From NCBI GenBank assembly GCA_039937575.1, contig JBDTGE010000056.1, forward strand, positions 1 to 25,605: 25,605 bases of DNA. Reading direction: 5' to 3'. A program made the position numbers and the translations under genes. The notes beneath the pieces are model-generated. The model worked only from the letters and a program-made list of their open reading frames with translations, was not told where the DNA came from and did no database searches. This stretch comes from Jatrophihabitantaceae bacterium (lineage in GTDB: Bacteria > Actinomycetota > Actinomycetes > Mycobacteriales > Jatrophihabitantaceae). This document shows positions 2,891-22,680 of this stretch, in pieces. Positions within the stretch are counted from its first letter, which is position 1, and each line of letters begins with the position of its first letter.

Positions 2891-3139
2891 CGTCGCTCCT
2901 CCGCCTCGGCGACCGGTATCGCGGGGAGCCCGGCCGACAACTTGTCCGAAAACCAACACCGGACATACACCGCATCACAGGGTAACCGACAACGGCGGCC
3001 TGAGAGTTGTACCTGGGGTGGCGCCCGGTGCGCCGTTGGTGGGAGCCGGTGACTATCCTGCTGAAGTCGGGTGATCGCGTCGATTCATGACGGCGCGGCG
3101 CCCGCAGGAGATGTCCGATCCCGACAGGGAGGCACCACC

Positions 3140-6904: not shown

Positions 6905-7474
6905 TCAGCCGCGGACGATCGGCTCGCCCCGCAGCCGGACGCCGTGCGCGCGCAGGTCGGCCAGGGCCGAGGCGACGGTCGTCGCCGCAACCCCGGCGGT
7001 GAGCTCGAGCCGGACCGTGATCGTGAACCCGGCCGCGGCCGCGTCGAGAGCGGTGGCTCGCACACAGTGGTCGGTCGCGATGCCGAGCACCTCGACCGTG
7101 TCGACGTGACGCGCGCGCAGCCAGTCGCCCAGCCCGACCCCGTCCGAGTCGCCCTCGAATCCGGAGTAGGCGGCGGCGTGCTCGCCCTTGTCGAAGACGG
7201 CCTCGAGGTGGGTGCGGTCCAGCTCGGGGTGCAGCTCGACCCCGCTCGTGCCGACGACACAGTGCACCGGCCACGAGTCGGTGAAGTCCGGCGCGGCCGA
7301 GAAGTGCGCACCGGGGTCGATGTGGTGATCGCGCGTCGCGACCGCGTGGTCGTACCCACCGGCGGCCAGGCGGGCGCTGATCGCGCGGGCGACGTCGGTC
7401 CCGCCCCCGACGGCCAGGGAACCGCCCTCGCAGAAGTCGTTCTGGACGTCCACCACGATCACCGCGCTTCTCAT
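6905..7474 (-). CDS. pncA: Nicotinamidase/pyrazinamidase (isochorismatase fold)
   Basis: VVDVQNDFCEGGSL, DHHIDPGAHFS, WPVHC, FDKG, GIATDHCV catalytic and metal motifs; adjacent to pncB. Confidence 0.95.
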   Translation of the reverse strand: MRSAVIVVDVQNDFCEGGSLAVGGGTDVARAISARLAAGGYDHAVATRDHHIDPGAHFSAAPDFTDSWPVHCVVGTSGVELHPELDRTHLEAVFDKGEHAAAYSGFEGDSDGVGLGDWLRARHVDTVEVLGIATDHCVRATALDAAAAGFTITVRLELTAGVAATTVASALADLRAHGVRLRGEPIVRG

Positions 7475-7539
7475 GTGACCCCGTTGCCCTGATCGGCATG
7501 GTGGGCGAAGTGGAGGCGAGTGTTTGCTCCGGTGCTCAC
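7471..7539 (-). repeat. Intergenic mini-ORF element, copy A (MSTGANTRLHFAHHADQGNGVT), stop overlapping the pncA start
   Basis: 54/66 aligned nt identical to 18740..18805 with one 3-nt indel; ends GGTCAC-ATGA; TACGGT 6 nt upstream of its GTG. Confidence 0.75.
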
Positions 7540-7558
7540 GTGATCACCGTAGTCACGC

Positions 7559-8839
7559 TCAGGGGGGCGGGACGAGTCGTGTCGAGATCGCCGGGTCGCC
7601 GCGCGAGAGCTTGAGGCCGTCCCAGGGCAGCGTCACCATGGCCGCCCGCAGGTGATCGCGCGACTGGTCCAACGTCGGCCGGTCGTCGACCGGCCGGCCA
7701 CCACGCATGAGCGGGCGCTGGATCAGCCGCTCGAACTCACCGAGTGGCGGGCGGTCGCCGGCCACCACGATCTCCTCGGTCGCCGTCCCGGTCGGCTTGT
7801 GGGCGCGGATCGCCGTCTTGCGGCCGCCGTGACTCTGCTTGTGTTCCGAGCGCTTGGCCACCGGGCGGCCCTCGACCTCGACCAGCTTGTAGACCAGGCC
7901 GGCCGTGGGAGCGCCGGAGCCGACGACGACCGCGGTTCCCGCCCCGTATGCGTCAACCGGCGCGACCGCGAGGGCCGCGATGGCGAACTCGTCCAGGTCG
8001 CCGCTGACGACGATCCGGGTCGACGTCGCGCCGAGGCGGTCCAGCTGCGCGCGGGCGTGCCGGGCCATGACGCCGAGGTCACCGGAGTCGATGCGCACCG
8101 CCCCGAGCTGCGGTCCCGCGACCTCGACCGCCAGCTCGATGCCGTGCGTGATGTCGTACGTGTCCACCAGCAGCGTCGTGCCCGTCCCGAGCGAGGCGAT
8201 CTGGGCCGCGAACGCGGACCGTTCGTCGTCGTGCAGCAGGGTGAACGCGTGTGCGGCGGTGCCCGTCGTCGGGATGCCGTGGCGCACGCTGGCCGCCAGG
8301 TTGGACGTCGCCGCGAACCCGGCCAGGTAGGCGGCGCGGGCCGAGGCGACGGCCGCCTCCTCGTGCGTGCGGCGAGAGCCCATCTCGATGATCGGGCGCC
8401 CGGCCGCGGCGGTGACCATGCGCGCCGCGGCCGAGGCGATCGCCGAGTCGTGGTTGAGGATCGAGAGCGCCACCGTCTCCAGGATGACGGCCTCGGCGAA
8501 CGTGCCGGACACGGTCAGGATCGGGGAGTGCGGGAAGTACAGCTCGCCCTCGGGGTACCCGTCGACGTCGCCGGTGAACCGGTAGCTCGAGAGGTACTGC
8601 GCGCCGGTATCGTCGATGACATCGCCCTTGCGCAGAAAGGCGATCGTCGCCTCGTCGAACGTGAAATCGGTGATCGCGTCCAGCAGACGCCCGGTCCCGG
8701 CGACGACCCCGAAGCGGCGTCCCTCCGGCAGGCGCCGCGCGAACACCTCGAACACGCACTGCCGTTCGGCCGTCCGGTCGCGCAGCGCGGACCCGAGCAT
8801 CGTCAGCTCGTACCGGTCGGTGAACAGCGCAGTGGTCAT
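7559..8839 (-). CDS. pncB: Nicotinate phosphoribosyltransferase
   Basis: TDRYELTM, EMGSRRTH, GTAAHAF, LVDTYD, VRIDSGDL, VYKLVE motifs; divergent from clpS as with Rv1330c/Rv1331. Confidence 0.95.
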   Translation of the reverse strand: MTTALFTDRYELTMLGSALRDRTAERQCVFEVFARRLPEGRRFGVVAGTGRLLDAITDFTFDEATIAFLRKGDVIDDTGAQYLSSYRFTGDVDGYPEGELYFPHSPILTVSGTFAEAVILETVALSILNHDSAIASAAARMVTAAAGRPIIEMGSRRTHEEAAVASARAAYLAGFAATSNLAASVRHGIPTTGTAAHAFTLLHDDERSAFAAQIASLGTGTTLLVDTYDITHGIELAVEVAGPQLGAVRIDSGDLGVMARHARAQLDRLGATSTRIVVSGDLDEFAIAALAVAPVDAYGAGTAVVVGSGAPTAGLVYKLVEVEGRPVAKRSEHKQSHGGRKTAIRAHKPTGTATEEIVVAGDRPPLGEFERLIQRPLMRGGRPVDDRPTLDQSRDHLRAAMVTLPWDGLKLSRGDPAISTRLVPPP

Positions 8840-18020: not shown

Positions 18021-18743
18021 ATGTCACGACCAGACGGCCGCGCGGCCGACCAGCTCCGTTCGATCACGATCACCCGCAACTGGCAGGCCTACGCCGAGGG
18101 GTCGGCGCTGATCGAGTTCGGCGCTACGAAGGTGCTCTGCGCCGCGTCAGTCCAGCAGGGCGTCCCGCGCTGGCGCAAGGGCAGCGGACTGGGTTGGGTC
18201 ACCGCCGAGTACTCGATGCTCCCGCGCGCCACCCTGACCCGCAACGACCGCGAGTCGGTCAAGGGCCGGATCGGCGGCCGCACCCACGAGATCTCCCGGC
18301 TGATCGGCCGGTCGTTGCGCGCGGCCATCGACCTGTCGGCGCTGGGCGAGAACTCCATCTCGATCGACTGCGACGTGCTGCAGGCCGACGGCGGCACCCG
18401 GACCGCTGCGATCACCGGCGCGTACGTCGCGCTCTCGGACGCGGTGTCGTGGCTGCGCGAGAAGGGCGCGCTGGCCCGCCCCGAGCCGCTGATCAACTCG
18501 CTGTCGGCGGTCAGCGTCGGTGTCATCGACGGTCAGCCCCGGCTGGACCTGATGTACGAGGAGGACGTCCGGGCCGAGACCGACATGAACGTCGTCATCA
18601 CCGGCGCGGGGGAGTTCGTCGAGGTCCAGGGCACCGCCGAGGGCGTGCCGTTCCGTCGCGACGAACTCGACGCGCTGCTCGACCTCGCCGTCGGAGGCTG
18701 CGCCGACCTGGCCAAGTTCCAGGAACGGGCTCTCAGCTCGTGA
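18021..18743 (+). CDS. rph: Ribonuclease PH
   Basis: [55 protein letters not shown]; TAGGCT 7 nt upstream of ATG. Confidence 0.97.
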
Positions 18744-18805
18744 GAGCCGGAGTAAACGCTCACCTCCACTTCGCGGACCATGCTGGCCGGGGCAAGGTCA
18801 CATGA
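18740..18805 (+). repeat. Intergenic mini-ORF element, copy B ([21 protein letters not shown]), bridging the rph stop and the rdgB start
   Basis: Its GTG overlaps the rph TGA (GTGA) and its TGA overlaps the rdgB ATG (ATGA); homologous to 7471..7539. Confidence 0.75.
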
Positions 18806-19407
18806 GCCGGATCCTGCTGGCCAGCCGCAACGCCAAGAAGCTGGCCGAGCTGCAGCGCATCCTGGCTCCGGCGCTGCCCGGGCTGGAGGTCGTCGGCCTG
18901 GACGACGTGCCGGCCTACGACGAGGTCCCGGAGTCCGGGGCGACGTTCGCCGACAACGCGCTGATCAAGGCGCGCGAGGGGTTCCGGCACACCGCGATGC
19001 CCACTGTCGCCGACGACTCCGGTCTCGCGGTCGATGCGCTGAACGGCATGCCGGGCGTGCTGTCGGCGCGCTGGGCCGGCGGGCACGGCGACGACGAGGC
19101 GAACCTGCAACTCGTGCTGGCCCAACTTTCGGACACGCCCGACGCCCGCCTGCGCGCCGCTTTCCTGTGCTCGGTGGCCTTCGTCGACGGCGAGGACGAG
19201 TTGGTGGTGGACGGGCGGATGGACGGCCACCTGGTGCGCGAGCCGCGGGGCACGAACGGCTTCGGCTAAGACCCGATCTTCGTCCCCGACGGCTTCGAGG
19301 TCACGAGCGCCGAGCTCGTGTCCGGGCAGAAGGACGAGATCAGCCACCGCGGCCAGGCGCTGCGGGCGCTCGTCCCGCACCTGCTCGAGCGCTCCACGAC
19401 CTCTTGA
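18802..19407 (+). pseudogene. rdgB: dITP/XTP pyrophosphatase (HAM1 family) with an in-frame TAA at 19267-19269
   Basis: SRNAKK, NALIKAR, ADDSGL, PGVLSARW, then GFG*DPIF...KDEISHRGQAL...TGA 19405-19407 in the same frame; the stop replaces the Tyr of GFGYDP. Confidence 0.92.
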
Positions 19408-19437
19408 GCACCGCGGTGCGCGAGTAGCTTCGGTTCC

Positions 19438-21338: not shown

Positions 21339-21411
<73 letters not shown>

Positions 21412-21498: not shown

Positions 21499-21575
21499 TG
21501 GGGTGAGTGACGGGACTCGAACCCGCGACATCCGCGACCACAACGCGGCGCTCTACCAGCTGAGCTACACCCACC
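21499..21575 (-). tRNA. tRNA-His (anticodon GTG) with genomic G-1 and encoded CCA
   Basis: G-GTGGGTG...CACTCAC-C-CCA; CCGCG-TT-GTG-GT-CGCGG anticodon arm; GGTTCGAGTCC T-arm. Confidence 0.97.
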
Positions 21576-22621: not shown

Positions 22622-22680
22622 TTCGTGATCATCTGCGAGTTCTGGTCGTGTAGCAGCCACAACTCGCAGATGATCACGAA
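22622..22680. repeat. REP-like palindrome 1: perfect 20-bp stem, 19-nt loop
   Basis: TTCGTGATCATCTGCGAGTT (22622-22641) / AACTCGCAGATGATCACGAA (22661-22680). Confidence 0.9.

Follow-up and report, generated by a model that had tools for sequence, protein, structure and literature searches.

The 62 bases that separate rph and rdgB in this Jatrophihabitantaceae genome are probably a secondary insertion. We assign a probability of about 0.8 to the reading that a dispersed repeat of roughly 65 nt, specific to this family and similar in design to the mycobacterial MIRUs, entered an ancestral 4-nt GTGA overlap between the two genes. The window, by which we mean the whole 25,605-nt stretch of DNA that was analyzed, is contig C56 of the source MAG (G000; 1.56 Mb, 200 contigs, 50% complete, 70% GC). 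On its plus strand, rph (RNase PH; Pfam RNase_PH PF01138 and RNase_PH_C PF03725) occupies positions 18021-18743 and ends in ...AGC TCG TGA, and rdgB (Ham1 family; Pfam Ham1p_like PF01725) occupies 18802-19410. Between them lies copy B of the repeat (18740-18805, plus strand), a GTG...TGA mini-ORF of 21 codons without an internal stop, recognized from the gap sequence, a profile search and the empty sites of relatives. The GTG of the mini-ORF (18740-18742) shares a GTGA (18740-18743) with the rph TGA (18741-18743), and its TGA (18803-18805) shares an ATGA (18802-18805) with the rdgB ATG (18802-18804), both on the plus strand. The initial annotation had proposed that the mini-ORF fills the entire gap with an overlap at each end, and the coordinates confirm this; a script tracing overlapping stops and starts reproduced the chain from rph through the mini-ORF to rdgB. 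Relative to an empty GTGA site, the net insert is 62 nt.

Copy B is not an assembly artefact, because Logan contigs of two soil/rhizosphere runs span the site unchanged, covering 18680-18915 and 18617-18986 with zero differences from the window; these two runs may include the sample that yielded the MAG. No contig skipping copy B was found in four soil/rhizosphere runs, at a depth of about 5 that says little. The downstream gene itself carries an in-frame TAA (19267-19269) in place of the TAC that encodes the Tyr of the conserved GFGYDPIF motif in the same-genus genome G001 and other relatives, and its frame past the TAA runs to 19410 with a C-terminus normal for RdgB. The gene could be a pseudogene, or the TAA could be a strain variant or an error in the consensus. 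With a premature stop in rdgB, coupling at this junction may no longer be important, or the gene may be decaying.

The evidence for insertion comes from relatives that lack the element. In G001, the rph-rdgB junction is an empty site in which the rph TGA directly overlaps a GTG start of rdgB (ccGGTGAGCCGG; cccgGTGAgccggatcc). The 4-nt overlap is found in 24 of 29 relatives (23 of 28 without the unpublished genome G006), and among the others two have a 1-nt overlap and one a 10-nt spacer. At the sites of three further copies, trpB-trpA, murC-ftsQ and C125:6399-6469, G001 again has an empty RTGA overlap, which brings the number of empty sites to four. The initial annotation had suggested insertion into a stop/start overlap and had proposed looking for empty sites in relatives; the sites described here are what it predicted. 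It had also named unrelated spacers of similar length in relatives as counting against an insertion, and such spacers do occur in G034 and G019. Both, however, are bridging mini-ORFs of other repeat families (20 and 21 codons) and thus reinforce the idea of insertion. Elsewhere in the source genome, a bridging mini-ORF of 10 codons (G000:C125:6836-6868; MSVHPGPEPA) has an ATGA and a GTGA overlap where G001 has a full 22-codon copy (L102, C284), and it is consistent with a copy that has undergone a 36-nt in-frame internal deletion.

Copy B belongs to a family with at least 19 members, each 62-71 nt long, in the 1.56 Mb of the source genome (iterated nhmmer profile, E<1e-3). Measured between successive RTGAs, the repeat unit is about 65 nt, a length of 2 mod 3, so that an upstream stop would overlap the start of an open mini-ORF whose own stop would overlap the downstream start. 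In 17 of the 19 copies the 3' end shares an RTGA with the start codon of a co-oriented downstream ORF, and these ORFs are 112-592 codons long with a GC3 of 0.88-0.96. A strict double overlap, which also includes the stop of a long upstream ORF, is found in only eight. The mini-ORF of four further copies starts 9-19 nt past the upstream stop, and the rest stand at the heads of genes with no overlapping upstream gene. The second copy in the window, copy A (7471-7539, minus strand; repeat match 7470-7540, 57 nt at 81%), is a 22-codon mini-ORF of this kind. Its TGA overlaps the ATG (7472-7474) of a pncA-like isochorismatase-family gene (6905-7474, minus strand; Pfam PF00857), and its GTG lies 19 nt past the stop of a pncB-like nicotinate phosphoribosyltransferase gene (7559-8839, minus strand; Pfam PF17767), so there is no double overlap. 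The proposal that an overlap is regenerated at each end therefore holds for copy B and, at the 3' end, for the family in general, but not for both ends of most copies. Since 11 of the 19 copies lack the double overlap, bridging is not obligatory, and the primary rule is coupling to the downstream start codon rather than bridging as such. The same orientation and coupling pattern was found in G001 and in other genera.

To describe the distribution of the repeat we used R1, a covariance model of sequence only. It matched 31 of 101 Jatrophihabitantaceae genomes in 17 of 42 genera (including G047, an unpublished single-copy genome), with 1-27 copies per genome. Among 138 genomes from 18 other families of the order, R1 gave three marginal single matches only; the repeat is specific to Jatrophihabitantaceae and essentially not found in those families. 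No tandem arrays were seen in the half-complete source genome. Head-to-tail arrays of 2-4 units with a 65-nt period are present in relatives (G001:C225, with three units; G098:C43; G088:C62; G053:C4; G107:C18), and their units are chained by the same overlap coupling. The main ribosomal-protein operon of G001 carries three identical units in its rplP-rpmC gap and a single copy in its rplE-rpsN gap (L099:860-1049, 2982-3060; G001:C225); in several genera (L066, L071, L135) a copy is again found 5' of rpsN. All junctions of the rplP-rpmC array are TGATG, with a 1-nt overlap, and TGATG is also the native form of this junction in most of 23 relatives (two of them, G006 and G030, unpublished). A copy thus takes the junction type that is native to its site. 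A search with blastn of plasmid and phage collections gave no match to the repeat and no longer relative, and a plasmid or phage vector was rejected on this ground.

What the copies preserve bears on what the mini-ORF is. The most conserved core of the family lies at 18747-18779 (plus strand) in copy B and consists of CCGGAGTAAACGCTCACCTCC and ACTTCGCGGACC, as determined from the family alignment and pair counts. Variability among copies is nearly flat across codon positions, and synonymous differences make up a fraction of 0.24 in the ORF frame compared to 0.14 and 0.27 in the other two. In copy C93, compensating deletions of 1 nt and 2 nt cause the core to be read in another frame; the resulting peptide is unrelated, and the copy is still open and RTGA-coupled. 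Net length changes among the copies are multiples of three (-3, -3, -3, +6 and -6) with the sole exception of C178 (+4), whose frame is fused to its downstream gene. Given the synonymous fractions, C93 and the length changes in multiples of three, selection appears to act on the frame and its openness and not on the peptide. These observations weigh against two readings in which the mini-ORF would serve the cell. One is that it is a regulatory leader peptide or uORF, acting for example by ribosome stalling on the conserved N-x-H-L-R-F-A core, and that the family is a regulatory module in dispersed copies and not a parasite that the host tolerates. The well conserved core sequence, the co-orientation and coupling to the downstream start, the copies at the heads of genes and the recurrence 5' of rpsN would all fit this reading. 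Content tied to the downstream pathway and a conserved peptide would be expected of a leader or attenuator, however, whereas the genes downstream of the copies are mutually unrelated and share no common pathway (they encode RdgB, a PncA-like protein, TrpA, an FAD-linked oxidase, Nramp, a PolA-like protein, FtsQ, a Zincin_2 peptidase and two ABC permeases). The ORF frame also shows no synonymous excess, the peptide of C93 is an entirely different one, close relatives have empty sites at the orthologous positions, and tandem arrays of 2-4 units are unexpected for a leader, so we regard this reading as highly improbable. The other is that the mini-ORFs are real genes whose small proteins, about 22 aa long, serve a cellular function. 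Although no full-length copy has an interrupted frame and a consensus M-S-T-G-V-N-T-H-L-R-F-A-G-H-A-D is recognizable, there is no purifying selection at the peptide level, and the mini-ORFs use atypical codons (GGA, GTA, ACT) in a genome with a GC3 above 0.9. Together with the frameshift in C93, the fusion in C178 and the identity of tandem units, this makes small-protein genes hardly credible.

The remaining alternative is a primarily structured RNA or DNA element, similar to REP/BIME elements or MITEs, with hairpins bound by a protein and an open frame that is only a by-product of GC richness. Some pairing potential is present. The core contains complementary GGAG/CTCC segments, three hand-drawn helices are 68-91% paired across copies with little covariation, pairing is 68-88% for CGGAG/CUCCG, UCCGC/GCGGA and a 3' hairpin, the 3' helix shows a few double changes, and the window also has REP-like hairpins at 22622-22680, where a near-perfect inverted repeat of 24 nt (96% complementary) encloses an 11-nt loop. 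Folding, however, argues against a structured element. The minimum free energy of copy B has a z-score of -0.32 relative to shuffled sequences, and those of the eight folded copies range from -0.3 to -1.4; the RNAalifold consensus of the family reaches only -2 kcal/mol with 4 pairs, and covariation measures for a fuller structure fall within or near shuffled controls. RNA structure was therefore rejected as the basis of the element: the consensus is trivial, covariation is little and the copies fold no better than shuffled sequences. The suggestion in the initial annotation that the copies could form RNA structure is thus not supported, and of the two complementarities on which it drew, GGAG/CTCC is conserved (without covariation), whereas the terminal GTGA/TCAC is present in one 3' subtype only. 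An Rfam search of the window returned only two tRNA genes (21339-21411 and 21502-21574, minus strand; RF00005, 69 and 64 bits) and no match at copy A or copy B.

The family shares with REP/BIME elements (RAYT) and with IS200/IS605-derived palindromes that it is short, numerous, intergenic and non-autonomous and has some internal complementarity. It differs in having no significant hairpin stability and no Y1_Tnp domain in the carriers searched; the combination of a stable palindrome and a Y1 transposase was not found, and a fixed orientation to the downstream gene and a codon-phased insertion are not REP features. Y1_Tnp (PF01797, RAYT) was absent from five carrier genomes, G000 (50% complete), G001 (97%), G063, G088 and G098, in a search in which control genomes scored, and mobilization by IS200/IS605 or RAYT was rejected on this basis. 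With MITEs the family has in common its small size, its lack of autonomy, short direct repeats on the flanks and sites that are filled in some genomes and empty in others. Unlike MITEs, it has no terminal inverted repeats beyond the 4-nt GTGA/TCAC of one subtype, no related full-length IS to which such repeats might correspond was identified, and its target is a stop/start codon overlap. Structure would also not account for a unit length of 2 mod 3 or for RTGA phasing, and we regard a structured element as very unlikely.

The family instead resembles the mycobacterial MIRUs. As described in two reports (PMC3184786 and PMC12548453, citing Supply et al. 1997 Mol Microbiol 26:991), MIRUs are 40-100 bp repeats present in 40-50 copies, the ends of their ORF overlap the flanking genes, and insertion at a start codon leaves the ORF coupled at -4 nt. 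The same reports list tetranucleotide direct repeats and empty versus filled sites, and state that MIRUs are thought to preserve the -4 coupling. By that account, both are short dispersed repeats in tens of copies between co-oriented genes, with a small ORF that overlaps the stop and start of its neighbors at -4 nt. In both, tetranucleotide direct repeats border the unit, and a site that is filled in one genome can be empty in a relative. Tandem arrays with a period equal to ORF length minus overlap are also common to both, as is a tolerance attributed to kept coupling. The architecture found here, that is, short dispersed and co-oriented repeats, a double-overlap ORF, filled and empty sites with direct repeats, and tandem arrays, corresponds to the MIRU type. 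The differences are in the host, which is Jatrophihabitantaceae and not Mycobacterium, with no convincing R1 match in the 18 other families of the order; in the arrays, which occur only in relatives and not in the source genome; and in the subfamilies, which reproduce either -4 (RTGA) or -1 (TGATG) junctions. We would class the family as a separate sequence family with MIRU architecture, likened to MIRUs by their published description and not by unit sequence. No report of MIRU-like elements outside Mycobacterium was found in full-text literature searches.

The ends of the element bear on how it may insert. The direct repeat at both ends is RTGA(G) with no further extension, and the RTG at either end goes with the 3' subtype: one subtype has GTG at both ends and the other ATG, a concordance seen in 13 of 17 copies. 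AGY is the second codon of the downstream gene in 15 of 18 copies compared to 26% at native overlaps, and AGT, a rare codon here, in 7 of 18 compared to 4%. This codon seems to travel with the element. Either the target preference is RTGAGY, or the copied unit extends from RTGA to RTGAGY and replaces the junction; the four filled/empty pairs fit both. A simple duplication by staggered cuts does not predict the AGY bias; duplication of an xTGA target, as the initial annotation had proposed checking, is not proven as a clean case, with the RTGs following the subtype and the second codon apparently moving with the element. A longer target duplication or a partial upstream unit, raised by C140, C138 and C125, was rejected because the 20 nt 5' of the two RTGs have a mean identity of 6.9/20 against a null of 6.8. 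Insertion after codon 2, raised by the filled/empty pair at C125, is contradicted by C175 and C178, where the downstream second codons are not AGY, so that the boundaries can be placed only to within RTGAGN.

Copy B's family is not the only one found at such junctions. The rph-rdgB insert of G034 (L021:1810-1872) belongs to a second MIRU-like family, GAGCATCGCAGGGCC...GGCCCGAGGAGCG..., unrelated to that of copy B, with 24 matches in G034 that are mostly pairs or arrays of a period of about 83 nt; this second family is also present in G001 and in the source genome (C191:4565-4610, minus strand; C184:567-610, minus strand). At trpB-trpA, four further unrelated bridging mini-ORFs of 16-24 codons were found in G004, G011, G014 and G034 (L108, L116, L119, L126), and the insert in G014 consists of two tandem units. 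A crude scan of the source genome returned 50 mini-ORFs of 5-58 codons with an RTGA overlap on both sides, eight of them from copy B's family, with lengths peaking at 21-22 codons; some singletons among the 50 may be artefacts of simple gene calling. At least five unrelated bridging repeats at rph-rdgB and trpB-trpA in different genera, the reproduction of the junction type and the start and second codons that are apparently carried would allow the reading that stop/start overlaps (RTGA, TGATG) are specific targets of a class of small mobile elements across Actinomycetota and not mere sites of survival. We consider this doubtful and put it forward tentatively. If true, it would imply an undescribed insertion mechanism that recognizes or copies the junction. 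Because no transposase travels with the element, the candidates for such a mechanism would be microhomology-primed copying or a host-encoded enzyme.

For copy B as a MIRU-like insertion, the anatomy of the junction suggests a plausible relay of ribosomes. Ribosomes that terminate on rph would re-initiate on the mini-ORF and, after its stop, again on rdgB. A purine-rich, SD-like stretch, GGGGCAAGG (18789-18797, plus strand), lies 4 nt 5' of the rdgB ATG and may aid this re-initiation. Pairing of the 3' part of the element with the anti-SD, whose sequence was taken from general knowledge, has an energy of -6.8 kcal/mol; the corresponding values are -5.2 for 240 native overlaps (p=0.014) and -3.5 for random positions. 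An insertion of this type would thus do little harm and could survive selection, and the peptide itself would be without function.

MIRUs are used worldwide to type tuberculosis strains, and their biology is barely understood. The repeat family described here, from environmental actinobacteria, offers clean filled and empty sites, tandem arrays, copies in a ribosomal-protein operon and evidence of selection on frame and not on peptide, and its copies provide many natural variants for testing termination-reinitiation coupling. In annotation, such spacers should not be called genes or regulatory RNAs, and they can shift predicted start codons. The findings support the MIRU-type design as a general way to insert DNA between translationally coupled genes without polar damage.
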